Source of the DNA: a virus
Lineage: Duplodnaviria; Caudoviricetes
DNA length: 55,698 bases
Virus record (IMG/VR): IMGVR_UViG_3300030329_001268
Coordinates: 1 to 55,698 of that record
Direction: 5' to 3' (one strand)
Position 1 is the stretch's first letter. Each line of letters starts with the position of its first letter. The notes beneath the pieces are model-generated. The model saw only the letters and a list, made by a program, of their open reading frames with translations, was not told the origin of the DNA and ran no database searches. This document shows positions 1-55,698 of this stretch, one piece after another. Position numbers and translations under genes: made by a program.

Positions 1-271
1 TTGCTATTGTTGTATCTGTATCAAATGCTGTAGTTGTATCAAAGGTAGTAGTAGTATCATATGCAGTAGTAGTTCCAAAAGTACTTGTTGTGCTTCTGCT
101 TGTTGCTGTATCTCTAGTAGTATTATAAATAGCATTAAAGAATGTAGATAAACTACCATCTGTCTCTTTTACGACAGCATAGTTTACAAATTTGATAGTA
201 CCATCAGTTACTTTAATATGTACCTGTTTAGGTGTTTCTATCGAATCTCCATCCCAAATCTTGAGGGCCAC
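1..271 (-). CDS. 5' part of a Thr/Ser-rich fibre-like protein; runs off the contig end and is not in the ORF track
   Basis: GTG at 271 follows AGAGGAG. Frame is open to base 1: MALKIWDGDSIETPKQVHIKVTDGTIKFVNYAVVKETDGSLSTFFNAIYNTTRDTATSRSTTSTFGTTTAYDTTTTFDTTTAFDTDTTIA. Lies directly downstream of the tail fibre gene. Confidence 0.9.
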   Translation of the reverse strand, partial: MALKIWDGDSIETPKQVHIKVTDGTIKFVNYAVVKETDGSLSTFFNAIYNTTRDTATSRSTTSTFGTTTAYDTTTTFDTTTAFDTDTTIA

Positions 272-288
272 TTTCTACTCCTCTTCTA

Positions 289-2943
289 TTATACCACGTA
301 CCATACAAAACCAGTTTTCTTACCTGTTCCGTTAGTAGGTGCAGAAGTTACTATTGCAAAATCTCTAGTATCAAAATCAGTAAGCGCTACTTGTTTCATT
401 GTTCCATCATCATTAACTACTAACCTATCTCCATCTGCAAGAGTTGTAGAACTGGCAGCTGTTCCTCCATCCATTATATTTAACTCTGTCGCAGTTGATG
501 TTACACCATCTAATATATTAAGTTCTGCTGCAGTACTTGTAACTGATGTGCCATTAATAGATAAAGCATCAGTTTCTAAAGTACCATCAATATCAGCATC
601 ACCACTAATATCTAGTGTTGCAGCATCTAATTCACCACTAATAGTTATGTTTCTACCACCAGTAATGTCTTTATTAGCATCTGTAATAATTGCTTTACTG
701 GCTATTACTGTTCCATTTGTAATTCCGTCTATAAGATTAATATCAGCTGCACTTGCTGTAACACCATCTAAAATATTTAATTCGGCAGTAGTTGAAGTAA
801 CTCCATCCATTATATTAAGTTCAGAAGTTGTAGCAGTTACCCCATCCATAATATTTAATTCAGCAGGAGTAGCGCTAATTTGAGTTGTAGTAGCCGCAGC
901 CAAGACTGGAATATATCCGCCTTGGTTAATTAAATATTGTGTATGGTCTGATGTAGGATCTACTATAGAAAGAGTAGTTTCATTTGAATCTGCGGTTGCC
1001 CCTTCAAAAACAATTGCGTTTGAAGCCTCCATTGTAACTGTATCTGCTGTAGTAGTTGTACCTGCTACAGTCAATTTAGGAACTAATAGTTCGCCTGTAC
1101 TTGGATTATATCTTAAAGCACCAGTATCATCTAACAGCCCATTAGACTCGTCATGAAAAACTATAGGGAAATTAGTGTTTGCTGTACTGTCTGCTACTGT
1201 GGCTGTAGCTGCTAATGTTGCATTTGCTACTGTAGTTCCTGCAATTACACTTGCTAAAGTTGAACCATTAACAGTAATTGCATCTGCTTCCAACGTTCCG
1301 TCTATATCAGCATCTCCACTAATATCTAAACTAGTTGCGTCTACTTCACCTGCAACAGTAACAACACCACTTGACAGCGTTATTAAATCTGTATCACTAG
1401 TATGTCCAATTACTGCACCATCAATTGCAATATTATCAACAGTAAGTGCTGTAAGAGTTCCAAGACTTGTAATGTTTGTTTGTGCCGCGCCTGTTACTGT
1501 AGCTGCTGTACCACTTGCATTACCTGTTACATTACCTGTAATATTACCAGTAAATGTTGAAGTAACTCCTGTAGTAGTAAGCATTCCAGAACTAGGATTA
1601 TATGTTAAACCTGTATCAGACTCTGCTCCCTGCGAACCTGTAGCACCATCTACAAATATTGGATATACTGTTTCGTTTGTGCTGTTATTTGCAGAAACTG
1701 TAATGTTATCAGCAGTTCCTGTAGTGTCCTGGTTAAGTGTACCAATTACAAAATCAAGTGTGTTATCTCCATCTTCATAAGTAACTGTAATACCTGTTTC
1801 AGTATTAGAACCAACCATCGCACCGACTGTATCGGCTATGTATTCGTTTAAAGGCGAACTATCTACAGTAATTGCATCGGCTTCCATCGTGCCATCAACA
1901 TCTATACTACCTGAAAGATCTATATCTCCTGTTACTGCTAAAGTACTTCCATTATAGGTTAATCCTGACTCTGCATCTAGTTCTGTTGTTGTAGCACCTA
2001 CTGTAACAAGTTCATTTTCTGTTGCATTGTTTAATGCAGAAATAGTTCCAGTAGCATTAAAATCTAAAGTATTATCATTGTCGTCATAGGTAACTGTTAC
2101 GTTTGTTTCAGTATTTCCGCTTACCATTGCGCCTACAGTATCTGCAATATATTCACTTAATGTAGTTCCATCTACTGTATAAGCATCAGCCTCAAGAGTT
2201 CCGTCAATATCTGCATCTCCTGAAATATCAAGAGTAGCTGCATCAAGTTCTCCTGATATTGTAATATTTCTACCACCGCTTATATCTTTATTTGAATCAG
2301 TGATAATTGCTTTACTAGCAATAACTGTTCCATTAGTTATACCATCTATAAGATTTATATCTGTAGCACTTGCTGTAACTCCGTCAAGTATGTTTAGTTC
2401 TGCTGTAGTAGAAGTAACTCCGTCAAGAATATTTAATTCTGCAGCAGTTGCTGTGACTCCGTCAAGAATATTTAATTCAGATGCTGTAGATGTTACTCCG
2501 TCTAATATATTCAGTTCAGCAGCTGTTGATGTAATTGCAGTTCCATTAAAATTTATTGCGTCTGCATATATTGTTCCATCAAAATAACCATCTTTAAATT
2601 CTAAAGAACTTGTACCTATATCAATATCATTATCTGTAACAGGAACTATTGCTCCGTCTTGAACTCTAATTTGTTCTACAGCAGCACTAGAAACTTCTAC
2701 AAAAAAACCAACTCTATTATTAGTTCCATCAACAACAACTTTATTTAAAAAGTCTAAATCTCCTATTTGAGGTACATTACCGCCTTGACCTGATGTACCA
2801 TCATGCCTATGTCCAGTGTTTGATGCACTACTTGAACTATAAGTAAATGCATTAACTAATTGATCATATTCATTATTAAATAATGCGGCTGTGATAGTGT
2901 CTCCATCACTAAATGAACTTTGCCTTGTATAACTTTGTGCCAT
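289..2943 (-). CDS. Tail fibre protein with 13-aa repeats
   Basis: 884 aa, rich in T/A/D/G. Tandem TSTAAELNILDGV-type repeats and duplicated GELDAATLDISGDADIDGTLEADA blocks. Follows the tail tubular genes. Confidence 0.8.
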   Translation of the reverse strand: MAQSYTRQSSFSDGDTITAALFNNEYDQLVNAFTYSSSSASNTGHRHDGTSGQGGNVPQIGDLDFLNKVVVDGTNNRVGFFVEVSSAAVEQIRVQDGAIVPVTDNDIDIGTSSLEFKDGYFDGTIYADAINFNGTAITSTAAELNILDGVTSTASELNILDGVTATAAELNILDGVTSTTAELNILDGVTASATDINLIDGITNGTVIASKAIITDSNKDISGGRNITISGELDAATLDISGDADIDGTLEADAYTVDGTTLSEYIADTVGAMVSGNTETNVTVTYDDNDNTLDFNATGTISALNNATENELVTVGATTTELDAESGLTYNGSTLAVTGDIDLSGSIDVDGTMEADAITVDSSPLNEYIADTVGAMVGSNTETGITVTYEDGDNTLDFVIGTLNQDTTGTADNITVSANNSTNETVYPIFVDGATGSQGAESDTGLTYNPSSGMLTTTGVTSTFTGNITGNVTGNASGTAATVTGAAQTNITSLGTLTALTVDNIAIDGAVIGHTSDTDLITLSSGVVTVAGEVDATSLDISGDADIDGTLEADAITVNGSTLASVIAGTTVANATLAATATVADSTANTNFPIVFHDESNGLLDDTGALRYNPSTGELLVPKLTVAGTTTTADTVTMEASNAIVFEGATADSNETTLSIVDPTSDHTQYLINQGGYIPVLAAATTTQISATPAELNIMDGVTATTSELNIMDGVTSTTAELNILDGVTASAADINLIDGITNGTVIASKAIITDANKDITGGRNITISGELDAATLDISGDADIDGTLETDALSINGTSVTSTAAELNILDGVTSTATELNIMDGGTAASSTTLADGDRLVVNDDGTMKQVALTDFDTRDFAIVTSAPTNGTGKKTGFVWYVV

Positions 2944-39181: not shown

Positions 39182-39209
39182 ATTATAGTCCGTATTTCTA
39201 GGCTGTCAA
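39182..39209 (-). promoter_or_regulatory. sigma70-like promoter ahead of the lysis/hsp20 block
   Basis: TTGACA-16 nt-TATAAT. Confidence 0.55.
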
Positions 39210-42200: not shown

Positions 42201-45200
42201 TAAATTTTCAGGTGCGCCTTCTAAAGTAGTCGCTGCTTTCATAGTTAATCCTTCTATATGCTTTACTCTGTCGTCTTCAATAAAACCTTTTCTTTTTTCT
42301 GAAAGTATTCTTTTTGTTTCTAAATCACTTAGCGTACCGCCATGTATTTCATCCATATCCGCAGTATCTAAAAAGTCTGTTTCTTTCTGTCTTTTTAATA
42401 GGTTTTTTAATATAGGATTAACAACAACACCTGCTCCTGCAAAACCAAGCCTTTCCATTTCTTGTTCATAAGGCATTCCTGTATATTTATTAATCATTTC
42501 TGAAGGTTCTATTTTTACATTAGAAACAGGAAAAGTATCAGAGATTTTACCCCCTTCAAATTTTTTCAGCCTGTCACTTGCTTTTCCTCTTATGGCTCTC
42601 ATAGCCTTTTCCATATTTAAACTAGGCGCTCTTCCGTCATCTATTACAGGAAGTTTTCTAAATTGATCTTCATAAGCAACTAGTATTCTTAAAAATTGTT
42701 GAGGTGTTGTGTGTTCAAACTTTAATTCTTGTACAATTCTTTCTTTCATTTTATCTGAAATACCTAAAGGAACATACATATTACTATTTAAAGAAGCCCT
42801 TTCTTCTTCTGTTATTCTTCCTGTATCTTCCATATACATTTCTAAAATATCATTTACTTTACCAATAGGCATTCCTGATTTAAATTCATCTCTATATAAA
42901 TTTATAGCGCCTTGATGAGCCAAGGAAAGAGTCTGATAATTAAAGTAATTATTTTTTTCTGCTTTTAAATATGCTTCAAGAAACTTTAATTCAGTCGTAT
43001 CTTTATTAATATTCTTTCCTATTTGTCTTTTAAACTCTTTATTGTTTGATGTATATCTTGAAAGTTTTGACACCAAAGAATTTTCTACATATTGTGGAGT
43101 TACTTTCTTCCATCTCAAGCCTGTAAAGTTTGCTATGAGTTCTGCTGTAGGATCAAGTTCTTGCCCTGAAGCAAGTACAGGATCGTCTGAGAAAGATTTA
43201 AATAATTTATCTAATTGTGGTGCAGCGCCCGGAACAAAAGATTTCATAACATGATAAATAGCCATTTGACTATTGTTAATTGATTTTTCTGCTAAGTCTC
43301 CTCCTTCAGAACTATCCCAACCATCAATCTTATCTCCGTGTTCAGTACTTCCTGCCATTGCTTTTCTTACATCTGTAATGGCTTCTGTTAATAATGCTTC
43401 ACTTGCAAAAGGTTCTAAAAATCTACTTATTCCTTCATAGGCTGCATTACCTATTATCTCTTGCATTTCTTTTTCAGTTTTATTTCCGTCTGCAAGTTCC
43501 ATTGCAGCAACTCTTATTGGCTCTTTTATAGTATCATAAGGATCTACATAACTAAAATTATTAACATACAAAACACCTTCAGAATCTCTATAGTATAAAC
43601 GTTTTGTATATTTAGCATAGTCTGCTTCTAATAGATGTCTAATTGCATCGTCTGTGTTATCGTCTGTTCCTGACATCATTTGTGTAGCACCACCTAACAT
43701 TTCTGATCCCAGTCCTGCTGAAACAGTCATCCCTGCCATTCGTTGATAACCTCTTCGTCTTATTACAGGATTATCAGACATTATTTCTTTTGCCCCAATA
43801 TGTAGAGCATGATAACTAGTTCTTACCATTTCAGCAGGGAAAGAAAAGAAATTACCTAAAGGAAGTTTTCTTAGCCATTTAATTCCTGGAGGAACTAAGT
43901 CATAGTTAGGAATAGTCATTCTTACTTTAAATGCTGCTTCAGCGTCAATGGCTGCTTGACTATAATTAGGGCCATATGCTGATCTTAAAGTTTTAATTTC
44001 TTTTTCAAAAGCAGCAATTTTAAATAAGTCATCTTCTGCAATGTACAGTTTTTGTACTTGTTGAGGTATTTTAGAAAGTTTAGAATCTGTTAATCTGCTT
44101 GTTACTCCTTCAATACCAAACTGTTCAGCATCATTTATAAGCGCTCTATAGTCTCCAACTTTTGCACTTGTATTAACAATACCAAGACTATGGTATCTTT
44201 CATACCTAGCAATTTTTTCTGCATCATTTTCTTTTACTAGAAATTTAAAAGCGTCTACATTTTCTTCAGAAAAAGGATTCATTCCATTTGCTAACATAAA
44301 CATAGCACCGCCCATAGTATTTCTTAAATGAGTAATGTGATTAAACACTGTTTTAGAGGCTTGAGCATATCCTTTGCCTTGTAAATAATATCCGTAGGCT
44401 TTCATCATATTACTTTTCCAACGAGGCTGTTCTCTAAATATTCTATGTACACCTTTAGTAGTCCATTTTCCAGTCAATGCTCCCATTTTAGGATCAGTAA
44501 TTTGTTTCATTCCGGGCTGTCTTGTACTATGAAAATATATTCCTTTTCCTAATTCCCAAGCATTTGTCATAAACCTGTCTGTTTCTATAGCATCTGAAAG
44601 TTTTGTTAAAGATGTAAATACATTTCCTCTAACATCATCTGTTCTTCCAAGTAACTGTTGTACTTCTTTAGGAAAATCTTTTCTTGCTTTCATTGATCCT
44701 GTTAATCTTCCATGTATTTTTTCTACATATTGAAAAACATTTTCAGCTGCTTCTTTATCTCCTACAATGCCTTCAACTGTTGCTTTAGCATTTTTTGATA
44801 TAGCCTCATCTACAGGAGTACGCACTCCGTCTAATTCAATAACATTTTTACCTTGGTATTTTGTTATTTCAAATTTTTGACCATCAAGAGTTAAGAATCT
44901 TTTATTTAAATCTTTATCCACACTAATATTTTTTCTTATTTCTTTTTCAAAATAAGTTTGTGCTTCTAGTATGTGTTCTAAAGGAGGCTTATATCCTGTG
45001 CTGTATTTTAACCACGATCTTCTAAGGTACTTTCCTAAGTTGCTACCAATAACTTCTTTTACTTCATCAGGAACATACTCACTTTGCATATATAGTTTAC
45101 TTAACTCGTCTTGTTGATTACGAATTGCGAGTGCGTCTTTTTGTAAACTTTTAGGAAGATCTTTAAGTTCTACTTTATAAGGTGCAAAATCAGGATCTAA

Positions 45201-47390
45201 ATAATAATTTAATTGTGTAATTAATTCTTCTTTTCTTAGTTCTTTTCTTTTTGCCAAATCTCTCGAAATAAAATCAGGTTCTATTACATCTAAGTAAGGA
45301 GTTCCTATCCAAGGAGCATCATCTCCTTTCATTCTAGCAACTAAACTGTCAATACTTTTTTCAAGATTTACTACATGTCGTTCTGCGTTGCTTTGCCATG
45401 CTCTTTTTACTCTGTTAGTTTCTTGTATTAAGTCAAATAGTTTTGGAGTATAGTTTCCTCTTGACCTAAATATTTGTCCTCCTACCCATTGATAAGCATT
45501 TCTTTTCATTACATTATTCCAAGCACCCCAATCTTCTTTACCAAGACCTGCCATTTGCCAACCATGTCTTAACTCTTCAGGATCTTCAACAAACTTTTTA
45601 GGATCAGGCTTTCCTTTTTCTTTTTCTGCTCCAAACAAATCCATTTGTTTTTGTTCATCAGGAGTCTTTGCCAGTTGTTTTTCACCATACACAGTTTTAG
45701 CACTTACATGTGTGTTATATTCTGCAAGTAATTCAGGGTTTTCTTTTATTGATTCTCTGAAACCACGTAGTCTTTTCATTACTGCATCTTTTGCAGGTTT
45801 TAATCCTTTCTCCCATCCTGGCTGAATCGTTGTTTTATAAACTCCAAGTCCTAATAAATTTAATAAAGAACCTTCTACTAAGACACCTACTCTTGCTTCA
45901 AGTTGTGGCGAATCTTCTTGTGCAGCTAGGTATTGCATAAGATCATTTTTTTGTTCTTCGTCTGCGTATGCTCCTATCATATTAAATAGGCGGTCTTCTC
46001 TATATATATCCCAACCTGTTTGTTCTCCTAAAAGTGCAGCCACATTTCCTTTCATCCATTTATAAGCCCTTTTTCCTTTCTCTGACTTAATCATTTTTTT
46101 ACCTACATCAGGAAGAGCCTTGTACCATCCTGCTATATTTGCTGCAAGAGAAGATACATCAGAAATCATTTCTCCTCCCCAATAAGTAGGCTTTTTTAAT
46201 CTTAAAGAACGAATACCATCTCGCATATAAGTTTCTACATTTTCTTCACCAAACAAAACTTTTCCCATTTCAATATTCATATCACTAAATATTTGTTTAG
46301 GAAGATAATCGTCTACACCTTTTTTCCCTTTGCTTATTTGTTCTCTTATGTATGGTGATAACTCTTCATAATCTGAACTAGAAACCATCTCGCTATACAA
46401 ATCCATACTACTTGTACTTGGACCATCTCTCATAAGTCTATTGTTTGAGTTACCTGCTGTATTAAAAACATGATCACCAACTCTGCGAGGATTGTCAAGT
46501 TGTGAAATATCTTCTTCTGCATCGTATCTTCTAAAACTTGTTGCAGCAAGTAAGTCTTTTATTGATTCTTTATCGTAACCATTTTCTCTTAATGTCAGTT
46601 CTAATTGTCCTGTATTCATAGCAAGAGCAATAGCATCATATCCCATTTGTAATTGTTCTTCAGATATTTCTTCAAACACTCTGCCATCTTTTGTTACAGG
46701 AGAATATTGATCTTTACCAAGTAAAAGACCAATAAAAGTATCTTCTTTTTGATTAAAATTTTGACCTTTTTCGTCAAACAAATCATTTTGTACTATGCCT
46801 AAACGATTTAATACAGAAGAAGCAACCAAGGCTCGACCAATCTTTCCTTCTCCTTCTGCTTCAGCCACGACAAGACGAGCCAACATTTCTTCATCAGAAA
46901 TTTGCCTGTCGTCAAATACAATGGTTTTTTCTTTGGATAGGGCTACCTTAGGAATAAAGGTTCCATCTTTCTGTGATTTTGAAAGAAAAGGCGCTGTTGT
47001 ATAAGCAGAAGCAAGAACCATATAAGGATCTACAGTCTTCCAATTGGGAACAAACAAATCTATCATGCTGTTAGAAAAATTAGCGGCAGCAGGACCAAGT
47101 GTTCTTGCGGTATTATCCCAAAAACCTACTTTTTCTTTTTGAACTACACTTTCTTTAGGAGCAGAAAGTTCTATATCTTGTACCAACTCATTTACAAATT
47201 CTTCATCTTGAGATGAGGCAGTTTCTAAACCTAAAAATTTTTTGTAGCCATTTAAATCTCCATGTTCTTTATCTATATCATTTTTGTATTGAGAATAATA
47301 TTGATCTACAAGATCATGATCATTTATATCTTTAAGTTGAGGATACTTTTTTTTGTATTCTTGTATGTTTGTCAACAAAGAATCAGTCAT
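39198..47390 (-). CDS. Giant internal virion (ejection) protein with a SleB/Hydrolase_2-like cell-wall hydrolase domain
   Basis: 2730 aa. LARLVVAEAEGE...ALVASSVLNR...QYSPV...GDHVF near the N-terminus. TH.RN, TIPNY and GNFFSFPAE in the central helical region. Confidence 0.8.
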   Translation of the reverse strand: MTDSLLTNIQEYKKKYPQLKDINDHDLVDQYYSQYKNDIDKEHGDLNGYKKFLGLETASSQDEEFVNELVQDIELSAPKESVVQKEKVGFWDNTARTLGPAAANFSNSMIDLFVPNWKTVDPYMVLASAYTTAPFLSKSQKDGTFIPKVALSKEKTIVFDDRQISDEEMLARLVVAEAEGEGKIGRALVASSVLNRLGIVQNDLFDEKGQNFNQKEDTFIGLLLGKDQYSPVTKDGRVFEEISEEQLQMGYDAIALAMNTGQLELTLRENGYDKESIKDLLAATSFRRYDAEEDISQLDNPRRVGDHVFNTAGNSNNRLMRDGPSTSSMDLYSEMVSSSDYEELSPYIREQISKGKKGVDDYLPKQIFSDMNIEMGKVLFGEENVETYMRDGIRSLRLKKPTYWGGEMISDVSSLAANIAGWYKALPDVGKKMIKSEKGKRAYKWMKGNVAALLGEQTGWDIYREDRLFNMIGAYADEEQKNDLMQYLAAQEDSPQLEARVGVLVEGSLLNLLGLGVYKTTIQPGWEKGLKPAKDAVMKRLRGFRESIKENPELLAEYNTHVSAKTVYGEKQLAKTPDEQKQMDLFGAEKEKGKPDPKKFVEDPEELRHGWQMAGLGKEDWGAWNNVMKRNAYQWVGGQIFRSRGNYTPKLFDLIQETNRVKRAWQSNAERHVVNLEKSIDSLVARMKGDDAPWIGTPYLDVIEPDFISRDLAKRKELRKEELITQLNYYLDPDFAPYKVELKDLPKSLQKDALAIRNQQDELSKLYMQSEYVPDEVKEVIGSNLGKYLRRSWLKYSTGYKPPLEHILEAQTYFEKEIRKNISVDKDLNKRFLTLDGQKFEITKYQGKNVIELDGVRTPVDEAISKNAKATVEGIVGDKEAAENVFQYVEKIHGRLTGSMKARKDFPKEVQQLLGRTDDVRGNVFTSLTKLSDAIETDRFMTNAWELGKGIYFHSTRQPGMKQITDPKMGALTGKWTTKGVHRIFREQPRWKSNMMKAYGYYLQGKGYAQASKTVFNHITHLRNTMGGAMFMLANGMNPFSEENVDAFKFLVKENDAEKIARYERYHSLGIVNTSAKVGDYRALINDAEQFGIEGVTSRLTDSKLSKIPQQVQKLYIAEDDLFKIAAFEKEIKTLRSAYGPNYSQAAIDAEAAFKVRMTIPNYDLVPPGIKWLRKLPLGNFFSFPAEMVRTSYHALHIGAKEIMSDNPVIRRRGYQRMAGMTVSAGLGSEMLGGATQMMSGTDDNTDDAIRHLLEADYAKYTKRLYYRDSEGVLYVNNFSYVDPYDTIKEPIRVAAMELADGNKTEKEMQEIIGNAAYEGISRFLEPFASEALLTEAITDVRKAMAGSTEHGDKIDGWDSSEGGDLAEKSINNSQMAIYHVMKSFVPGAAPQLDKLFKSFSDDPVLASGQELDPTAELIANFTGLRWKKVTPQYVENSLVSKLSRYTSNNKEFKRQIGKNINKDTTELKFLEAYLKAEKNNYFNYQTLSLAHQGAINLYRDEFKSGMPIGKVNDILEMYMEDTGRITEEERASLNSNMYVPLGISDKMKERIVQELKFEHTTPQQFLRILVAYEDQFRKLPVIDDGRAPSLNMEKAMRAIRGKASDRLKKFEGGKISDTFPVSNVKIEPSEMINKYTGMPYEQEMERLGFAGAGVVVNPILKNLLKRQKETDFLDTADMDEIHGGTLSDLETKRILSEKRKGFIEDDRVKHIEGLTMKAATTLEGAPENLKGQALIDYVYSPKRKQAVSKTEKEWIDNIFYNKETDVSNMDKYEMLDLIKENQPQLKMTSLKETKAFEEPVFADVEGFDPSQRPTRPQIVDPIDGTDYSIIDSEDIIDTVINLRERVERSGVKKGIQGEVAENFNLSLDSKNFLIDLFYVKNKKGILEYIQEINLPKEFNSEQYIDEIGTKAATIDRLIADSQENLKLLNRGTAQSGDHQEAMMQLGGQQEMLNESMEGISEIFNLLQGSPGGKGAGFKIDDIPIEFYEKVYKDYMHDINDPYGELVIDNISRIRYAQNPNYRYNLQNTQDAMDAAHEESLIEAQKTLDNVYLFGNQERGFSLVDENKTGYSGPEEYAEFGSRNAVVEYIEDVNLQEAEVQLRQYVREWYPEEYGFQGSGGFEIIHKNEMTPGGSNYAETIVTIDNPQSLKGMIPPNHYTEILQEDSPYLYHILTNDRYLITGRQKGMEYEMAHAKFVDELQSDFWQKAETVGVLTQRDIRELDTVEKEVMEGIKEIMPIGGEVSEEWSSFSRAPWMHESDSGWSKWEKYIYLRYGLVYNERVKPGVNPTGPYITSDDETFAKRLMPEINQYHRLGFLLDAFNINDSMPLEKALKEIAAQEWNQLNRWTKPIKGEDLDGWFEAEQRGSGEIVDYDGDEIFEEWIKDETSSPMNAHKRASGRFDNIVENLTSLGIETVGGFKKKISSKTNKIVQKQLQYTDILEGDNSAGAKYAYLPFSNDEWIAKGIQTAIEMALNEGQQYVVFNRGSNIAARWGKDYFMTDEFIIRRTPPEAKKALVEQNYSAKDFTIMARDSVTGEAYVPNSLEKISTGQAFDYIEIVDALEAFKEQGNSSRYLTRKTAELFSQIQEDLGFKEMKDFLNHIKSLEPDVNHSMPLKEKRVYGDGKFQGLLYDVKIPRIARKIANRMGANVTRKHFDPEDELFNPEFYQPDEGYFTIEFTDTAVKNVEEKGTGTVFKWNQGGFVNILQQRRQKYLGGHTLRNKIQKRLTA

Positions 47391-47408
47391 ATTTTAAAAC
47401 CTTTTAAT

Positions 47409-48770
47409 TTAGTTTTTTGGTAAATTTCCGGGATACACAACAGATTGAGGAAGGTTCTGTTTTCCTTCAATAATAGACTCTACAAACTGTTCTCTAGTCA
47501 TATCAGATGCAATGCCTAATAGTTCTAGTTCTCCAACACTATTATAAATATTCCATAAACTAGTATAATATTCTTCTGATTCTCTTTTGTCAGTAAAATC
47601 CCATGTTTTCTTTTTCGCTAACTCGGCAGCTCTATCAAAAAGATAGTCTTGTACTTTTGCTTGATAACTATTGTCTTCTTCTTTTCGTTGTAAAAAATCA
47701 GCGTTTGCTGCAGTTTCAGTCCATAACTCTTCTAGTACTTGAGCATTTTTAGTTTCTGACTCATTCCAAGCAGTGTAAAATGCTTCTTGTCCTTCAGGAG
47801 TAAAGACAGTTGATACTGCTTCAAACATGTCAACTGTAAAAGTAATAGGAAGTTTTCCTTTTCCAACTGGAGTAATTTCAGGTGTATCATCAACAGAACC
47901 ATCTGCATATTCTATACGCTTTCTATAACTTTGCATTGTTACTTTTTGTCCAGTTTCTTGATCTATCTTGTCAAAATATTCAATATTACTAAAAGTTGTT
48001 TTTACTATTTTTTTGTCGGTCTTTGCAATTTTTGTAGCAAGTTCTTGATCTCCTGATCCACCATCTTCTAAAGCAACTTGTAAAGCAGCTTTAAAAGATC
48101 TCATGTCATCAAAAACTTTTCCTTCTAAGTTTTCTAACGTAATTTCTTTTCCTTTTTGATCTGCTACATCATTGCCTAAAATACGACTTCCTACTCTTTT
48201 AAGTTTTTGCCATCCATACTGTGCTATGTTTTGAGGAACGTCATAGTCTTTTTCTATCCTTGCTTTTAAATCTTCCATAGTAAGACCTGAAATACCTCTT
48301 GCAGATTCAACAAGATTCATCCATTCTATTTTTTCCATTTCTGCATTTTTTTTAGCCTGTTCCATGATCCACGCAGAAGCAGTTCCCATAGTACTCTTTC
48401 CTTGTCTTTCAAATGCTGTTGCAAGTTTATTATATTCTTGATCATAAAAATGTTCATCATAAGATTTTCCTGAATCTACAATGGCTTGGTTTTGTTGTAT
48501 AACACTTTTAGAATTATCTAATACAGTCTGCATATTTCCATATGTTGTTGTATTTGAATTATGAAAATCATTTACTACACCATCTAAAAGCCAACCACCT
48601 ACTTCTCCTATAATCATCGCTTTTGTTAATTTGTCTTCTCTATCTTCTTTACGTTTCATTAATTCTTCTGAACGTTTTACTTGTCTATCTAAAAGAGCGA
48701 CACCAAAAGATGATGATGTGCCAGGACCAGATCCTTGTACTCCGCTATAACTATTATTTCCGTTTGCCAT
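47409..48770 (-). CDS. Putative internal virion protein
   Basis: 453 aa, helical and charged; lies in the ejection gene block. Confidence 0.6.
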   Translation of the reverse strand: MANGNNSYSGVQGSGPGTSSSFGVALLDRQVKRSEELMKRKEDREDKLTKAMIIGEVGGWLLDGVVNDFHNSNTTTYGNMQTVLDNSKSVIQQNQAIVDSGKSYDEHFYDQEYNKLATAFERQGKSTMGTASAWIMEQAKKNAEMEKIEWMNLVESARGISGLTMEDLKARIEKDYDVPQNIAQYGWQKLKRVGSRILGNDVADQKGKEITLENLEGKVFDDMRSFKAALQVALEDGGSGDQELATKIAKTDKKIVKTTFSNIEYFDKIDQETGQKVTMQSYRKRIEYADGSVDDTPEITPVGKGKLPITFTVDMFEAVSTVFTPEGQEAFYTAWNESETKNAQVLEELWTETAANADFLQRKEEDNSYQAKVQDYLFDRAAELAKKKTWDFTDKRESEEYYTSLWNIYNSVGELELLGIASDMTREQFVESIIEGKQNLPQSVVYPGNLPKN

Positions 48771-48771
48771 T

Positions 48772-49386
48772 TTATCCTCTACCTAATAAACTATTACTTT
48801 CTTCTGATGGTTTTGGTTTTGCCATCAAACTAACTTCTTCAGGTACTTCAAAAGTTTCTATTTTTTGTGCCAATTCAGCAGGAATACTAGCGTCTGTAAT
48901 ATTTCCTGAAGCCTTTTTTTGTACCGCTTCTTCAAGACTATTAAGATCATTAGCAGATTTTGAAAGCATTTCTTCTGCATCTTCTTCTTCAAAGTCTTGA
49001 TCCTCTCCTCTATATATAGTATATTGAACACCTGCTTTTTCGCAAAGAGCCATAATCATATACATTAAAGGTTCAACAAGAATAAGAACCATATCAGGAT
49101 TCCATTTACCTTCTGTAAATCCTACATACAATAATTGCTGTACAATATCTGAAATAGGTACACCATCATTGACAGAACTTACTATACTTATATATGTATC
49201 TTCTTGTAAAAGACCTTGTAGTATATAATCTAATGCTTCTTGCATATCCGTAAATTCAGGCGGGCCTTCAAAAGGTTGTGGATTTTCAGGATCATTCATT
49301 AATGATTCACCAGGAATAGGTCTTTGCATTCTTCCTAATGCTTCTAATCCTGCTTCTTCGTACTGTACGTTTTGTTCAATTGCCAT
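48772..49386 (-). CDS. Hypothetical structural-region protein
   Basis: 204 aa with RPIPGESL, P.EGPPEF and GF.EGKWNPD; GGAG RBS. Confidence 0.7.
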   Translation of the reverse strand: MAIEQNVQYEEAGLEALGRMQRPIPGESLMNDPENPQPFEGPPEFTDMQEALDYILQGLLQEDTYISIVSSVNDGVPISDIVQQLLYVGFTEGKWNPDMVLILVEPLMYMIMALCEKAGVQYTIYRGEDQDFEEEDAEEMLSKSANDLNSLEEAVQKKASGNITDASIPAELAQKIETFEVPEEVSLMAKPKPSEESNSLLGRG

Positions 49387-49395
49387 ATATTACTC

Positions 49396-50523
49396 CTATC
49401 CTAAAAATGTATTGCTAGGCACGTAGTTTCTAGTCATTCTAGGCGCTGCTTGTTCAGAGATAACTCCTGGCTCTACCCAAAAAGGTGTATACCTCTGATT
49501 TAAATACGCATGAAAATCTTCAAATCCGCTAAAGACTTGTGCTGACTGAGCATCCATATGAGAACCTCCATATCCGTATCCTTCTGACCTTACATCATTG
49601 TTAGTTCCTGTTGGACCAATAATACTTTCTAATTGAACTCCGTCTGAAGTATAGTATTGACCTACTGTTCCTCCATAAATAGTAGTAAATTCAGGATCTT
49701 CTCTTACACCTGCTGCTTCTAAAAGTTCATTTTTTACAAATTCACCAGGAACTTCTTTTCCTTTCTCTAAAATTTGTTCTTTTTGGTCTTCATAAATTTC
49801 TAATGCTTTATCTTTAAGAGATTTTTCTTCTGTAACAACTGTTTCGGTGTCTACTTCTTCTCGAGGTATATTGTCCGTTGCGTCAGGAGTTTGTGCTGTT
49901 TCTTCTGTAACATTTTCATTTTCTACTGTGCCTGTAGTTACTTCTGTAGTTTCAGGATAAGCCTTTTTCCATGCATCAGATTCTAATAAACTTTTAGGTT
50001 TAAAATCGGCAGCTTTAAAGGCTTCTTGTACTTCAGGAGTCATTTGATCATACCAAAGTTTTTCTCCGTCTTTCATAACAAAGGATTGTCCTTCCAATGT
50101 TCCTTTCCATCCATCTGAAAGCCATCTACTTGTATCATCTTTTAAAGTGTTGAATCCTGAAAAAGGATCAGCAAAATCTGTTAAGCCAACTTTGTTTCCT
50201 ATCCATTTTAAAGATCCTGTGATTGCTTCAGTAACTCCTTTATAAACAGTACCTGCTGCTTTTCCTGCATGATAAATACCTCTCATTACATGACCAAATG
50301 CTTTACCTGCAACATTACTTCCTGCTGCCAGTCTCGTTGCAAACTTTCCGAGGCTTCCCCAAAAAGATGCAGCGTAAGGCATAAGGAACATCATGCCAAT
50401 ATGACCAAGCATTCCCATTTTACCAAAGAATTTACCTACCTTTTTGAAAAGTTTTTTTATTCCTTTGCCAATTTTTTTGACAACTTTTTTAAAACCTTTC
50501 CAAATTTTACTTAACAATCCCAT
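49396..50523 (-). CDS. Putative ejection/pilot protein with an amphipathic cationic N-terminus
   Basis: MGLLSKIWKGFKKVVKKIGKGIKKLFKKVGKFFGK, followed by a Gly/Ala hydrophobic segment. Confidence 0.65.
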   Translation of the reverse strand: MGLLSKIWKGFKKVVKKIGKGIKKLFKKVGKFFGKMGMLGHIGMMFLMPYAASFWGSLGKFATRLAAGSNVAGKAFGHVMRGIYHAGKAAGTVYKGVTEAITGSLKWIGNKVGLTDFADPFSGFNTLKDDTSRWLSDGWKGTLEGQSFVMKDGEKLWYDQMTPEVQEAFKAADFKPKSLLESDAWKKAYPETTEVTTGTVENENVTEETAQTPDATDNIPREEVDTETVVTEEKSLKDKALEIYEDQKEQILEKGKEVPGEFVKNELLEAAGVREDPEFTTIYGGTVGQYYTSDGVQLESIIGPTGTNNDVRSEGYGYGGSHMDAQSAQVFSGFEDFHAYLNQRYTPFWVEPGVISEQAAPRMTRNYVPSNTFLG

Positions 50524-50537
50524 TCTTATTTTCCTCC

Positions 50538-52598
50538 TTATCCAAAGAATCGTTTTACAAGTGCTTCAATAGTTCCTAGATTAGAACTCCAATTACTTGA
50601 TGCTTCACCTTCATTAGCAATTGCTGTTGCAAGTAATTGAGTTTTTCTAGTTTCTTCATTATCAGCCCATTTATTATCAAACGTTGCTTGATCTCTCATT
50701 TCTTGCCACAAAAATCCTAATGCCTGTGTGCTTAATCCAAAAGCGTTCATAGCATTTCTCATATTTGCTTCGTTGGCTGCAGCTGTATCAATCATATTTG
50801 ACTGCCTTCTCCATTGAACATTTGATTGTGCTACTGCTTGTGCATTGGCTTTGTTCCATTGTTCTCTATTAAAATCAACTTGATTATTATATTTATTAAT
50901 TTCTGTAACCATTGCAGCATTTGCTCTATTAAGGTCTGCTTCAATAGCAACTCTTCTTGCTTCTGCAGCGTTTTCTTGAGCAGCATTAAACTGTGCCATT
51001 GCAGTTTTTTGTTGAGCATTTGACAACTCTACCTGCTGTGCCATTGTAGCCATAAACTGCTGTGCTTGATTTGTTCCAATCATATTTGCATTTCGTGCTG
51101 CATTCTCAGCCGATTGGTTTGTAAGTAGTCGTTGTTGCTCAAGTTGAGCCTTTAGAACATGTCCTTGTTGTGCGTTACTTAAATTTTGCATATCCATACT
51201 TAAAAAAGACTGAGCATTTTGAGCAGCTAGTTTAGTATTAGCATCTAAGTTTGCCATATCTAAATTTGCCATGTTTGCTGCATTTTGTAAAACAGCAGTA
51301 TTTTCAGCACTAGTATCTGTTAATGATACAGTTTGTAAAAACTTACTATTAGATAATCTAGTCTGTTGTTCAGCACTAAAATTAGCCATGTCCATTTGAA
51401 AAACATTGTTAGCATTTGCTAATGCTGTTTGTTGTGCCATCTGAGCGTCTGCTTGTGCAGCTTGTGCTTCTATGCCTCTTTGATTAAAAACACTTTCTTT
51501 TATAGATTGAGCATTGCTTTGTGCTAAAGGAATTGCTGCAGTTATAAAACTATTTATTAAAGCATCTCTACCAACACTAGAGGCTTCTAATCCTCTTTTT
51601 GCTAACATATTATTAACTGCCGCTACAGCAGGTCTAGCAAATATAGGGATCTCTCCTTCTTCTACACCTTCTAATAACGTTGTTAATTGGTGAGAAACAA
51701 GCGCTTCTTCAGGAAGCCCTGCAATCATTCCTCGCTCTGCTTCTGTGTAATCTCCTACTTTATCTTCTAAAGCATCAGGATTGTTTCCAATATCTTGAAT
51801 TTGTTCTTCGGTTAATCCTGCTTTTCTTAGTTGTTTTTTAGCACGTAGCATTCTAGGAAGATTAGTACCTGCAACTTTTGCTGCTGTTGCTTTGGCTTGA
51901 GGACTAACAGTACCAGTAACTATTTGAGATAATGCCTGAGATGCTTGGTCTTGATCAACACTAATTCCTTGAGCCGAAAGACTTAGACTTGCTTCTTGAA
52001 CTTCGGCTACTGCTTCATCGCTTAATGTTCCTTCTTTTCCTTTAATAAAAGGACTGTCAGCAACTTTAGCAGCTGTCATTGTTGCTACAGGTCTGTCTTT
52101 TCCTCTTCTAGCAGCGGATGCTTTACCTGTTGCTACTGTTTCTTCGTCAGGTTGTACTATTTTTTCTGCTGTCGCATCACCTGGATCTACCATCTGCCTT
52201 GCTGAACCCGCAATGGCTTTGTTCGTCTTTGCTGTTTTTATTTTAGCAGAATCAGGAAGTTCTCCTGTTAATGCAGAAGATACTTTTTCTCTAACTGATG
52301 TTGCGCTTTCATCTGTAATATCTGCATATTGTCCGCTTCCTTGTCCTCCGGGTGTCCATTCATATCCTGTCTTAGCAGGATCATAATTAGGAACACCTGG
52401 GGTAGAAGGAGTATTAGGACTGTTAGGATCGTTAGGATCAGGGTTATTTGCATGATATGTATTGTATGCTTCCAGTGCAAACTCAAATTCATCTTGCGAT
52501 GAAAAATCTCTTCTATATGGTCTTACACCATGCCAAAGCCTGACTCTTCCGCCCTTTCTGTAATCTTCTCTAACTACTGTATTTCTTTTACGTGTCAT
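50538..52598 (-). CDS. Putative ejection protein with an A/Q/N-rich coiled coil
   Basis: 686 aa. LAKRGL..SS motif and a long QxNA-type helical region. Confidence 0.65.
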   Translation of the reverse strand: MTRKRNTVVREDYRKGGRVRLWHGVRPYRRDFSSQDEFEFALEAYNTYHANNPDPNDPNSPNTPSTPGVPNYDPAKTGYEWTPGGQGSGQYADITDESATSVREKVSSALTGELPDSAKIKTAKTNKAIAGSARQMVDPGDATAEKIVQPDEETVATGKASAARRGKDRPVATMTAAKVADSPFIKGKEGTLSDEAVAEVQEASLSLSAQGISVDQDQASQALSQIVTGTVSPQAKATAAKVAGTNLPRMLRAKKQLRKAGLTEEQIQDIGNNPDALEDKVGDYTEAERGMIAGLPEEALVSHQLTTLLEGVEEGEIPIFARPAVAAVNNMLAKRGLEASSVGRDALINSFITAAIPLAQSNAQSIKESVFNQRGIEAQAAQADAQMAQQTALANANNVFQMDMANFSAEQQTRLSNSKFLQTVSLTDTSAENTAVLQNAANMANLDMANLDANTKLAAQNAQSFLSMDMQNLSNAQQGHVLKAQLEQQRLLTNQSAENAARNANMIGTNQAQQFMATMAQQVELSNAQQKTAMAQFNAAQENAAEARRVAIEADLNRANAAMVTEINKYNNQVDFNREQWNKANAQAVAQSNVQWRRQSNMIDTAAANEANMRNAMNAFGLSTQALGFLWQEMRDQATFDNKWADNEETRKTQLLATAIANEGEASSNWSSNLGTIEALVKRFFG

Positions 52599-52609
52599 TG
52601 TTTTTCCTA

Positions 52610-52852
52610 TTATTTAACCTCAAATAGTTTATCAAGTTTATCTTCTAATTTATTTAACATACGAACTAATCGATCCATGTTTGTTTCTAATTCTTCTTTT
52701 GTTACATAATCTCTTGCAACTTCTTCTCTAGTTTTATTTAAAAGAACATCTATTCTTTTATTCTCATTAGCATTTTCTCTCATCCCATATATTATAGGCG
52801 CTAATACTAACGTTATAAAAGCGATCCAAATTTCCATTGCTTGTAATTCCAT
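52610..52852 (-). CDS. Small TM plus coiled-coil protein
   Basis: N-terminal TM; LLNKTREEVARDYVTK and KLEDKLDKL. Confidence 0.7.
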   Translation of the reverse strand: MELQAMEIWIAFITLVLAPIIYGMRENANENKRIDVLLNKTREEVARDYVTKEELETNMDRLVRMLNKLEDKLDKLFEVK

Positions 52853-52854
52853 TT

Positions 52855-53412
52855 CTAGTTTCCAAATTCTTTTTTAAATTCTAAATTATAAGCATTCTGA
52901 CGTTTAGTAAAATAATCAGGATCTGCTTCTTTTCCTTCTACAAAGTTTTTTACTTCGTTATTTGTTTTTTTCCAAACTTTATAATAATCAGTTTTTCTAA
53001 GTTTAGATGCATATTTAAATGTTTTTTCGTGGTTCTGCATAAAGAAAATAATATATTCACCATTTGTTATATCTGTATTTCCTACTACTTCACTCCATTC
53101 AGGATGATCTTCTACAAAAACTAATCCTCTTTCTTCTGCAAGTTTTTGTGTTTTTCGTGCTACTTTAAAAGTTTCTTGTATGCTCCATCTATCTTTTTCA
53201 AAAATAAGTAAAGTTATATCGTGTTTACTTAGATCCATTTCTTTAACACAAATTGCAATATCTTCATCGGGCCTATCATTATTAAACTCTATAATGTTTA
53301 ATCTTTTAGAAATTCTTGCTTCTTTAGCATATGGACAAACAGGTAAATTTCCAAAATCAATATTAGGTTTTTCTACAAAATTTTTGATCCATAGATCAAT
53401 TGCATGTTTCAT
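52855..53412 (-). CDS. DUF1415-like protein
   Basis: WI..FVE.PN...NLPVCPYA and DHP motifs. Confidence 0.55.
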   Translation of the reverse strand: MKHAIDLWIKNFVEKPNIDFGNLPVCPYAKEARISKRLNIIEFNNDRPDEDIAICVKEMDLSKHDITLLIFEKDRWSIQETFKVARKTQKLAEERGLVFVEDHPEWSEVVGNTDITNGEYIIFFMQNHEKTFKYASKLRKTDYYKVWKKTNNEVKNFVEGKEADPDYFTKRQNAYNLEFKKEFGN

Positions 53413-53960
53413 TAAACAATTACCGAGATAACTAATTTTTTATACGTCTGTCCGTAATGGTCTTCTATTGTTTCAGGAGTTGTATACGTTATCCATCCCT
53501 CATTAACTGATTTATCCCATGCTGCTTCCATTCCTGATCCTTCAAAAGTCCATGTTGAAAAAGTTGTTTCATCAGGAGCAAGACTTTTAAAAAAAGCATC
53601 TAACTTTTGATGGTACTCTGCTGTGTAACTCCAACCTTGGCTTCCACTTGCATCTTGTCGCATAAGATCCATCATGTGACAATACATTCCATTTTTCTCA
53701 CGTATTGCATAATTATAATTTACAATCCGACCATCTATATCTATTTTAAAAATAATAGATCCTGTACTTGAATCTTCATACCTGGCTCTTAATGCTTCAA
53801 ACTTTTCATCATTAGTACTAGAAACAGTTAATTCAAATTCTTCCCATACAATATTCGGAATAGGACTAGCATCTAAATAAGGTAAAGATTTATCAAAACA
53901 ATCTCTTAAAATAGCCTGATCTATATCACTATAATTAATTTGTGTTACAGTCATTGTCAT
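53412..53960 (-). CDS. Hypothetical protein
   Basis: ATG at 53960 follows GGAGG and lies 1 nt after the upstream stop. Preferred over 53987. Confidence 0.7.
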   Translation of the reverse strand: MTMTVTQINYSDIDQAILRDCFDKSLPYLDASPIPNIVWEEFELTVSSTNDEKFEALRARYEDSSTGSIIFKIDIDGRIVNYNYAIREKNGMYCHMMDLMRQDASGSQGWSYTAEYHQKLDAFFKSLAPDETTFSTWTFEGSGMEAAWDKSVNEGWITYTTPETIEDHYGQTYKKLVISVIV

Positions 53961-53961
53961 T

Positions 53962-55698
53962 TTAATCTTCCTCCCACGAATCGCCATCCCAATATCTAGC
54001 GTTATGCGCAGATCCCGATGCTACTTCTGTTTCAATAATAGAACCAGTGTTTCCTGTTGCAGTACTTCTTTCAAAAACTGTAGTGTTTGTATCAAACGTT
54101 GTAGTTGTACTTTTAGTAGTGTCTGTTGTTTTACTCGTTCCACTTGCTCTACTAGTTGCAGTGCTTTTACTTGTTCCTGTAGCATATGCAGTTTGAAAGG
54201 CAGTAGTAGTATTTTTACTAGTTGCAGTTGCTTTACTAGTTGCAGTTGCAAAAGCAGTTGTAGTAGTTCCTGCTGTGTTTGTTTGGAACGAAGTATCAGT
54301 TGCTTTGCTCGTTCCTGTAGCGCTTGTAGTATCTTTAGTAGTTGCTATTGTTGTATCAGTAGCGGTAGTTTTACTCGTTCCAGTCGCTTTTGAAGTATCA
54401 TAAGCAGTTGTTGTGTTTGTATCAAATACGCTTGTTGTACTTCTACTTGTTGCTGTAGCGCTTGATGTGTCGTATGTAGTAGTTGTATCAAACGTTGTAG
54501 TAGTGTTTGTTCCTCTACTAGTTCCTGTTGCAATTGCAGTATCCGTATCAAAAGTTGTAGTCGTACCATAAGTAGTTGTAGTATTAGTTGCAATTGTTGT
54601 ATCAGTTGCTGTAGCCTTACTAGTTGCTGTTGCTTTTGAAGTATCATACGTAGTTGTAGTATCAGTATCAAAAGTTGTAGTAGTATTTGTTGCTATTACA
54701 GTGTCTTCGTCTGTTGACTTACTGGTAGCAGTAGCATAAGCAGTTGCAGTATCAAAAGTTGTAGTAGTGTCAAATGATGTAGTAGTGTTTGTTGCTATTA
54801 CAGTGTCTTCATCTGTTGATCTACTTGTGCCTGTTGCTTTACTTGTTGCAGTATTGAAACTATAAGTTGTTCCAGTTGTTTTACTTGTATTATAAGTAGT
54901 TGTAGTATTAAAACTATACGTTGTTCCAGTATCTCTACTTGTTCCAGTATTTTTGCTTGTTCCTTTACTAGTATTAAATGTAGTCGTTCTGCTTGTATTA
55001 AATGTAGTAGACCTGCTTGTATTATATGTTGTTGACCTACTCGTATTAAATGTTGTAGTTTTGCTTGTATTAAAAGTATAACTAGTATTCCTAGATCCAG
55101 AGGTACTCTTAGTTCCTGAAGTTGCTGTACTAAAACTATAACTTGTATTAAAACTGTATGTAGTATTTCTACTTCCTGATGTGCTAGTACTTTTAGTTCC
55201 TGATGTCGAAGTTGATCTTGAAGTACTATTACTCAGTTGGTTATTTTTTCCGTAATACGTTGTCCAGGTTGTCGTTGTATTAAAACTATATCCTGTATTA
55301 GTGTTAAAACTGTATGAAGTACTTCTGCTTCCTGATGTACTTGTTGTGCCTGATGTTGTGGTATTAAAACTATATCCTGTATTAAAACTGTAACTTGTAG
55401 ATTTACTTCCTGACGTATTAAACGTAGTTGTTCTACTTGTATTATATGTAGTATTTCTACTTGTATTAAACGTAGTTGTTCTACTTGTATTATATGTTGT
55501 CGACCTACTTGTGTTATATGTAGTATTAAACGAAGTAGTTGTATTAAACGAAGTAGTAGTGTTTGTAGCACCGCTAGTTGCTGTAGACTTACTTGTATTA
55601 TACGTAGTTGTCGTATTCGTATCGCCTGATGTTGCTGTATCAAAAGTCGTTGTAGTATCAAACGAAGTTGTAGTCGCAGTACCATACGCTGTTTCAGT
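53962..55698 (-). CDS. 3' part (578 codons) of the Thr/Ser-rich self-complementary fibre protein; not in the ORF track
   Basis: Stop-free frame from 55698 (TETAYGTATTTSFDTTTTFD...) to ...SAHNARYWDGDSWEED-TAA. Same repeat grammar as 1-271. Confidence 0.9.
   Translation of the reverse strand, partial: TETAYGTATTTSFDTTTTFDTATSGDTNTTTTYNTSKSTATSGATNTTTSFNTTTSFNTTYNTSRSTTYNTSRTTTFNTSRNTTYNTSRTTTFNTSGSKSTSYSFNTGYSFNTTTSGTTSTSGSRSTSYSFNTNTGYSFNTTTTWTTYYGKNNQLSNSTSRSTSTSGTKSTSTSGSRNTTYSFNTSYSFSTATSGTKSTSGSRNTSYTFNTSKTTTFNTSRSTTYNTSRSTTFNTSRTTTFNTSKGTSKNTGTSRDTGTTYSFNTTTTYNTSKTTGTTYSFNTATSKATGTSRSTDEDTVIATNTTTSFDTTTTFDTATAYATATSKSTDEDTVIATNTTTTFDTDTTTTYDTSKATATSKATATDTTIATNTTTTYGTTTTFDTDTAIATGTSRGTNTTTTFDTTTTYDTSSATATSRSTTSVFDTNTTTAYDTSKATGTSKTTATDTTIATTKDTTSATGTSKATDTSFQTNTAGTTTTAFATATSKATATSKNTTTAFQTAYATGTSKSTATSRASGTSKTTDTTKSTTTTFDTNTTVFERSTATGNTGSIIETEVASGSAHNARYWDGDSWEED

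Follow-up and report, generated by a model that had tools for sequence, protein, structure and literature searches.

A threonine-rich protein of a marine podovirus is proposed to fold back into a long antiparallel beta-ribbon stalk under a mirror-complementary residue code

The virus record IMGVR_UViG_3300030329_001268 (Duplodnaviria; Caudoviricetes) comprises 55,698 nucleotides (nt), all of which were analysed and are called the window in the following. At its end lies an open reading frame (ORF) on the minus strand (53962..55698, 578 codons), which continues off the window. The encoded fragment contains 224 Thr and 89 Ser residues, 13 Ile, Val and Leu residues in total (7, 5 and 1, respectively), and one His. 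We assign a probability of about 0.8 to the reading that the complete protein is a fold-back antiparallel beta-ribbon stalk, that it serves as a virion fibre of a podovirus of the HMO-2011/pelagiphage type, and that its one gene is split by the contig ends. The two Thr-rich arms of the protein, each 384 residues long, are exact mirror complements under a simple code, and the arm lengths co-vary exactly. The side chains alternate as in an unbroken beta-strand. Very probably, the chain reverses at the motif GKNNQLS, and the arms zip into a continuous in-register antiparallel beta-ribbon.

The fold register of the 578-residue fragment was determined by scoring every register for the number of Lys and Arg residues (K/R) that face Phe, Tyr or Trp. 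The register centred on GKNNQLS (fragment residues 150-156) yielded 22 K/R-aromatic pairs and all other registers scanned yielded 12 or less. For comparison, 20,000 free shuffles gave a mean of 2.9 pairs (standard deviation 1.5) and a maximum of 10, and 20,000 shuffles that preserved the two-face pattern gave a mean of 5.6 (standard deviation 1.9) and a maximum of 14. An initial annotation of this DNA had claimed that the arms match residue for residue and without a gap for 149 positions, and this fold was reproduced. Its code face consists of 75 pairs, namely 38 Thr-Thr, 22 cation-aromatic (six K-Y, six R-Y, six F-R, three F-K and one R-W), nine Phe-Gly, three Thr-Tyr, one Ile-Tyr, one Glu-Thr and one Asn-Tyr pair. 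As had been claimed, all K/R in these arms (22/22) lie opposite an aromatic residue; neither aromatic-aromatic nor cation-cation pairs occur. The nine Phe-Gly pairs and the exceptions listed for the remaining Thr-Thr pairs were also found, except that the Tyr-Asn pair beside the turn had been overlooked. On the alternate face, Asn or Asp (N/D) is opposite Ser in 29 of 35 cases, which agrees with the preference noted before. The statement that the DNA is not an inverted repeat is likewise correct: no inverted repeats are present in the DNA, and the two arms share 35% nucleotide identity when the N-arm DNA is reverse-complemented.

Relatives of the protein were collected by several searches. A word-index search with the 578-residue fragment yielded seven relatives of 321-343 amino acids (aa), and pattern scans of IMG/VR yielded 22 loci and then 37 more. 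No homologue was found when the 90-aa N-terminal fragment was compared with longer proteins in the word-index search. A profile search of a representative library gave 86 matches at E <= 0.001, which were mostly fragments, and two additional full-length members; the long profile matches P0069, P0082, P0089 and P0075 turned out to be unrelated repeat proteins. The members share a common architecture: an N-terminal domain of about 53 residues and a conserved C-terminal segment of about 35 residues flank two Thr-rich arms, which are separated by a centre. The centre is an aromatic-rich globular domain of about 85 aa in some relatives, and a bare G/K/N-rich turn in others, among them the protein of the window.

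The conserved termini allowed us to formulate an anchor rule. One conserved residue was marked in each anchor, and the predicted register is given by the position of the N anchor plus that of the C anchor minus 3. The register with most K/R-aromatic pairs was identical to the predicted one in the first 25 of 25 distinct proteins, then in 44 of 44 and, with the proteins L063 (described below) and L064 included, in 46 of 46 complete proteins, one of which (L034) is a tie. The count of 44 was derived from 56 translated frames, 46 of which are distinct, after L026 and L054, which end early and lack the C anchor, had been dropped; seven frames continue beyond the ends of their contigs (L009, L024, L027, L028, L029, L039, L041) and had been left out beforehand. 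The rule holds for proteins of 234-1354 aa and for 39 different anchor-to-anchor spans. In the longest protein (L025, 1354 aa), all 62 K/R between the anchors lie opposite aromatic residues; for L058 (999 aa, with a tip domain) this is true for 55 of 59. Of 18 tipless relatives, 17 have a G/K/N-rich turn at the centre that the anchors predict. With a rise of 0.33-0.34 nm per residue, which is the textbook value for beta-strands and was used for all lengths, the stalks of the family would measure about 21 to 210 nm, the shortest being that of L042 with about 63 pairs and the longest that of L025 with about 628 pairs. Similar Thr-rich arms were also observed in other viral proteins on unrelated N- or C-terminal domains (P0046, P0068, P0084, P0063, P0057), often with Trp as the aromatic residue and Gln, Ser or Lys opposite. 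P0046 and P0068 have a tip domain that resembles the one in tip-bearing members; in a quick scan, no register stood out decisively for them.

The window assembly is a single contig of 55,698 bases without a terminal repeat. A minus-strand frame at its start (2..271) encodes the N-terminus of the same type of protein and continues off the window start. The two end frames are mutually out of phase, and sequence must therefore be missing between them. When the anchor rule was applied to the two fragments, it gave 198 missing residues and placed the N fragment at the far end of the C arm, where 5/5 K/R are opposite aromatics; this is the best of about 340 registers. Afterwards, the metagenome scaffold L063 was retrieved by an exact 30-nt scan of metagenome contigs. 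L063 matches window positions 49816-55698 to 99.8% and positions 1-1478 to 100%, with 593 nt between them. Its frame is intact over 866 codons; the N fragment of the window is an exact prefix and the C fragment an exact suffix of the encoded protein, with 198 residues in between. The segment absent from the window is L063:5991-6583 (593 nt, 198 codons). Because L063 holds exactly 198 codons between the window ends, the anchor rule passed a blind prediction.

In the full-length protein, the marked anchor residues are a = 52 and c = 831. The predicted register is therefore 880, which is also the best-scoring one with 47 pairs; the runner-up has 21. Between the anchors, 47 of 50 K/R are opposite aromatic residues. 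The residues opposite the 73 aromatics are K (29 times), R (18), G (10), I (7), S (5), T (3) and N (1). Among the residues counted in the face assignment, the 71 aromatics and 49 K/R are without exception on one face, whereas the 84 N/D are all on the other. The full-length stalk consists of 384 pairs and would be about 127-131 nm long; the initial annotation had extrapolated about 385 pairs and 125-130 nm from the incomplete frame.

L063 also bears on the notion that the frame is not a real gene but an open frame of low complexity or an artefact of assembly at a contig end. The contig breaks inside the gene, and the gene copies L026, L054 and L062 stop early or shift frame within the repeats, which would fit an artefact. 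These three copies, which were excluded from all counts, may contain sequencing or assembly errors or may be real pseudogenes. However, the frame is intact over 866 codons on an independent scaffold, where its two ends are identical to those in the window, the start is preceded by a GAGGAG site, the non-repeat termini are conserved, and intact homologues occupy the same genomic position in many contigs. The probability of an artefact is therefore considered negligible. Assemblers evidently fail on the hairpin gene: many related contigs (L024, L027-L029, L039, L041) also terminate inside it. The window is a whole phage genome that is broken inside a repeat-rich fibre gene; with the 593 nt restored, the circular or permuted genome would have 56,291 bp.

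The initial annotation had proposed to look for symmetric insertions or deletions (indels) and for compensatory swaps in the arms of homologues. The comparison of L030 and L032 revealed indels of 14, 4 and 12 residues at distances of 24, 44 and 74 residues from the base in the N arm, and of 14, 4 and 12 residues at distances of 26, 48 and 80 in the C arm. In P0004 and P0007, indels of 4 residues each are found at 10 and 68 in the N arm, and at 10 and 70 in the C arm. Mirrored indels likewise occur in the pairs L010/L017, L003/L008 and L011/L021; they correspond in size and height between the arms. Equally good registers and asymmetric indels had been named as signs against the fold. Other registers scored far lower in the fragment and in the full-length protein, and the indels were mirrored. 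In each of the 46 complete proteins, the two arms are of exactly equal length. With respect to compensatory swaps, L063 retains the partners in 298 of 329 aligned pairs compared to L023 and in 240 of 280 compared to L064, but only 3 and 11 code pairs, respectively, change class, and the evidence for covariation is thin. The global alignment of L063 and L025 failed, with 0 of 362 partners kept.

The pairing preferences were quantified for a conservatively trimmed set of 2,262 arm pairs from 46 proteins, in which many arms were shortened. Aromatic-K/R pairs were observed 283 times (52 expected) and N-S pairs 198 times (98 expected). In contrast, T-aromatic pairs were observed twice (254 expected), T-K/R pairs never (175 expected), aromatic-aromatic pairs never (38 expected), K/R-K/R pairs never (18 expected), and N-N pairs once (15 expected). 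Because the family members share ancestry, these pair counts are not independent events; mirrored indels and the 39 different spans are the independent ones. The split between code face and alternate face, counted over 20 tipless proteins, is 642 to 3 for aromatics, 439 to 1 for K/R, 15 to 612 for N/D, and 56 to 1053 for Ser. Aromatics and K/R stay on one face throughout arms of up to 628 residues, and the phase never slips.

These data also allow for an assessment of the alternative that the protein is a Thr-rich parallel beta-solenoid of the antifreeze type or a disordered, mucin-like linker, and that the mirror match is a by-product of periodicity. The sequence is indeed made of short repeats, which form 10 direct-repeat families, and echo registers shifted by plus or minus one repeat period reach about half of the maximum score. 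The initial annotation had named a beta-solenoid or disorder among the outcomes that would speak against the ribbon. Parallel stacking nevertheless fits far worse than the fold-back, and repeat periods of 6, 8 and 10 are mixed, unlike the constant coil length of a solenoid. Among ten offsets from 4 to 40, the best one (12) brings 34 of 50 K/R next to an aromatic residue, with both sides counted, compared to 47 of 50 for the fold-back. Moreover, this offset results in 24 like-with-like contacts and leaves 26 code letters flanked by Thr only, whereas the corresponding values for the fold-back are 0 and 3. An alternation that does not slip for up to 628 residues leaves no room for the corners of a solenoid, and neither a solenoid nor disorder explains the mirrored indels and the exact anchor rule. 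A solenoid or a disordered linker is therefore regarded as highly improbable.

Complementarity alone cannot separate a hairpin from a duplex of double length, in which two chains pair head to tail and the N arm of one chain binds the C arm of the other; all pairing statistics fit both. Yet intramolecular closure is kinetically favoured as a general principle, and in tip-bearing relatives a compact domain of about 85 aa, whose two ends must meet, is located exactly at the centre. In addition, AlphaFold2 closed the turn as a hairpin. For L035 (270 aa), modelled with an alignment of 26 sequences, it predicted two strands of 28 residues each (109-136 and 150-177) with a predicted local distance difference test (pLDDT) score of 55-65, which form a hairpin of about 28 pairs. 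The ends of these strands sum to the register given by the anchor rule and are symmetric about it. A head-to-tail duplex is considered very improbable.

The assignment to a phage fibre is based on the gene neighbourhood. According to PHROGs matches, the large terminase subunit is encoded at 10832-12472, the portal at 8642-10828 and the major head protein at 5784-6782. The nearest counterparts of the head protein are those of Pelagibacter phage HTVC115P (55% identity), Pelagibacter phage HTVC103P (49%) and Puniceispirillum phage HMO-2011 (45%). These three phages are podoviruses by morphology, with about 54-55 kb each. The source phage is probably an uncultivated marine podovirus of the HMO-2011/pelagiphage HTVC115P type. 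In the close relatives L023 and L026, the head protein gene is followed by p256, p546, the genes of the 884-aa fibre-like protein and of the hairpin protein, and then by p191, p185, p80 and p686; exactly this arrangement results from joining the window ends. The location of the hairpin gene in the fibre cluster, after the 884-aa fibre-like gene of the head-tail module, supports the interpretation as a fibre. The tip-bearing relatives reside on a different backbone without matches to the neighbouring proteins of the window phage; there, too, the gene is located between tail-fibre genes identified by PHROGs, and an internal virion protein is encoded nearby.

Besides the shared ancestry of the family members, several observations weigh against a fold-back fibre. 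Three of the 50 K/R in the full-length protein do not face an aromatic residue (K-G twice and the turn Lys). In L034 (258 aa), the register predicted by the rule ties with a second one (8 versus 8 pairs), and the turn is about 8 residues off-centre; this protein may be a natural bulged or slipped stalk. Structure prediction, which had been suggested for fragments centred on the apex, gave a weak result. AlphaFold2 assigned no secondary structure to a 305-aa apex fragment modelled from the single sequence (mean pLDDT 30), while the short hairpin of L035 was predicted in the expected register. The overall mean pLDDT of the L035 model is 36, and the ESM Atlas model of the same protein has a pLDDT of 0.28. 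Cultured relatives such as HTVC115P contain no hairpin gene at this position, after the fibre gene. Finally, the placement on the virion and a role in adsorption are deduced from gene order alone.

The number of chains per fibre is a separate question. One face of the ribbon consists nearly entirely of S, T, N, D, A and G, and all bulky residues are on the other face. This asymmetry hints at packing or at strong coiling; it could mean that one ribbon packs against another, which would count against a lone ribbon. Accordingly, the same fold-back pairing might be combined with an association of three or another number of hairpins, which pack together through the faces with small residues and form a needle or prism of six strands such as that of gp37, the tip of the T4 long tail fibre. 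Phage fibres are usually trimers. The gp37 needle (PDB 2XGF) is a trimer with about 50 residues per arm and an iron-His core. According to PMC9659904, this needle (Bartual et al. 2010) is six-stranded and antiparallel, consists of three chains, and carries a head domain at the far end. Small residues on one face and bulky ones on the other would sterically fit the tight interior of such a bundle. On the other hand, the 578-residue fragment offers neither an aliphatic core (7 Ile, 5 Val, 1 Leu) nor His-x-His metal sites (1 His), and a strongly coiled lone ribbon could likewise favour small residues on its concave face. Furthermore, repeat periods of 6, 8 and 10 residues are intermixed along a single stalk, which a fixed bundle geometry would be expected to resist, and the complementarity of both faces is pairwise and not three-way. 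These three features, namely the composition, the intermixed periods and the pairwise matching of residues, favour a lone ribbon; we consider it an even bet that each chain forms a lone two-stranded ribbon, and a bundle possible but somewhat unlikely.

The initial annotation had stated that no phage fibre built in this way is described. This holds for the pair code, the scale and the composition, but not for the fold-back topology, which is already present in T4 gp37. As in gp37, the chain would run out along the fibre and back, with antiparallel strands on the axis and both ends oriented towards the phage, and in tip-bearing members the tip domain lies at the predicted centre, as the far-end domain of gp37 lies at the turn. 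In contrast to gp37, the arms comprise 63 to 628 residues, the register is defined by a Thr:Thr and aromatic:cation code, and many family members, including the protein of the window, have no head domain. His-x-His metal motifs are absent (one His in 578 residues), and there is no sequence relation (0 PDB matches).

Single-layer beta sheets without a hydrophobic core are known from the central sheet of Borrelia OspA and from the E-G5 rods of Staphylococcus SasG, which form long rods. The stalk would resemble these proteins in being exposed, extended beta-structure that is held by cross-strand pairs and beta-propensity with no buried core. OspA and SasG, however, are three-stranded, consist of short strands or repeated domains and have no mirror code, whereas each of the two strands presumed here would continue for hundreds of residues without a break. 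Designed or model beta-hairpins of 12-20 residues are stabilised by cation-pi, Thr-Thr and aromatic-Gly pairs across the strands; in this natural protein, pairs of these types would encode the register along hundreds of residues. The nearest shapes to the confident part of the AlphaFold2 model are the stems of beta-pore-forming toxins and hairpins of phage tails or knobs, which are long, Ser/Thr-rich and two-stranded and ranked highest in a Foldseek search; the best match had an E of 0.08, and none of the 55 matches was significant at E <= 0.001. These hairpins have 20-50 residues per arm, a hydrophobic face, and assemble into membrane barrels, whereas the family is almost devoid of aliphatic residues (13 Ile, Val and Leu in 578). 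T5 pb1 has chaperone hairpins of 50 angstrom (PMC4690869) and DT57C has short hairpins (PMC10713586), and neither corresponds to this design.

No description of a mirror-coded fold-back fibre was found in accessible full text (which excludes subscription-only papers and supplements), Pfam, PHROGs or PDB sequences. A profile of 26 family members gave no match at E <= 1 among 177,635 PDB sequences, seven family members had no match in PHROGs, and the fragments encoded by the window had none in Pfam. The C-terminal RYWDG..W motif of some relatives resembles Pfam DUF2510 (PF10708), but the best of nine proteins (P0004, 22.6 bits) is below the gathering cut-off of 24 bits; L035 reached 13.2 bits and L023 had no match. 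Relatives in the ESM Atlas belong to viral clusters without names. In 50,697 GenBank phage records, no megablast match was found for window positions 44000-55698, and tblastn with the C fragment, the N fragment and P0003 found none either, although the low-complexity filter of BLAST may mask arm matches. Relative to the literature searched, the design is rated as new, with the fold being deduced from sequence and backed by the successful blind prediction.

How the stalk might work can be outlined as follows. The code face is two-state: Thr lies opposite Thr, and aromatic residues are matched by K/R or, in fewer cases, by G, I, N, Q or H. The alternate face contains small polar residues only, with N/D opposite S. 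In the absence of an aliphatic core, the register would be set by the cross-strand pairs and the high beta-propensity of Thr. Thr would provide both this propensity and solubility, and aromatic:cation, aromatic:Gly and Asn/Asp:Ser pairs would lock the register. The N-terminal 53 and the C-terminal 35 or so residues, which are conserved together, would meet at the base, where the initial annotation had also placed both termini, and presumably form a domain that docks to the virion. A W-D-G-D-S motif was observed near both termini (minus strand; KIWDGDS at 240-260 and RYWDGDSW at 53965-54000), and the base may comprise two similar short beta-hairpin motifs. The turn domain of about 85 aa found in relatives is probably used for binding. 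Since the length of the stalk varies from about 63 to about 628 pairs, it would work in adsorption as a length-adjustable spacer that presents a tip domain or, if tipless as here, as a long and thin feeler. Most tentatively, and at slightly less than even odds, the stalk may be seen as a protein counterpart of base pairing, in which a Thr:Thr, aromatic:cation and Asn/Asp:Ser code sets the register of a core-less single-chain ribbon of about 20 to about 210 nm, whose length is tuned by mirrored indels.

If the fold is confirmed, it would represent a new construction of a fibre from two uninterrupted strands of hundreds of residues without a hydrophobic core, whose register can be read from the sequence. 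It would explain the widespread Thr-rich ORFs of marine phages that are considered low-complexity, break assemblies and are annotated as hypothetical, and it would suggest a length-tunable adsorption organelle to be sought on abundant ocean podoviruses. Simple design rules for rigid or semi-flexible protein nanofibres of chosen length would also follow. If the code resembling base pairing is real, the stalk would be the most residue-economical long fibre known, with a reach of about 0.17 nm per residue. The anchor rule has already been predictive, as it gave the exact size of a segment missing from an assembly.

Table 1. Features of the hairpin gene and its neighbours in the window.
Feature	Position	Strand	Evidence or remark
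Base-proximal N arm, residues 54-90 and first base of codon 91; contig break here	1..112	-	5/5 K/R opposite aromatics at the rule register
GTG start codon (269-271) and putative N-terminal base domain (residues 1-53) up to the N anchor A-I-x-x-T-T-R	113..271	-	ORF 2..271; conserved in 59 loci
GAGGAG ribosome-binding site, 6 nt upstream of GTG	278..283	-	Read from sequence
Repeat-rich fibre-like protein of 884 aa, adjoins the hairpin gene upstream	289..2943	-	Upstream in 20 related loci
Protein of 191 aa, no known family, adjoins downstream; start overlaps the end of the hairpin gene by 26 nt	53412..53987	-	Downstream in 11 related loci
Putative C-terminal base segment: C anchor V-F-E-R, then ETEV...RYWDGDSWEED; stop codon 53962-53964	53962..54078	-	Conserved terminus
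Complete C arm, 384 residues, predicted to pair residue by residue with the N arm	54079..55230	-	47/50 K/R opposite aromatics
Apex turn GKNNQLS, bare, without tip domain	55231..55251	-	Anchor-predicted centre s/2 = 440 is the middle Asn
Apex-proximal N arm, 149 residues (289-437 of 866 aa)	55252..55698	-	Frame and L063

The 884-aa protein encoded upstream of the hairpin gene contains many copies of a motif resembling AELNILDGVT. Its PHROG matches are all to families of unknown function, and it matches Pfam Bactofilin (a beta-helix) with 29.7 bits at a cut-off of 27.9. The 191-aa protein encoded downstream is 46-59% identical in the 11 loci and may act as a partner or as an assembly factor. In the region of virion or internal proteins, an ORF of 2730 aa (39198-47390, minus strand) represents the largest gene of the phage. 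Opposite the fibre genes, the plus strand contains three long Ser/Val/Cys-rich ORFs (218-883, 1175-1780 and 54004-54393), which look like by-products of the biased composition of the minus strand and not like genes.

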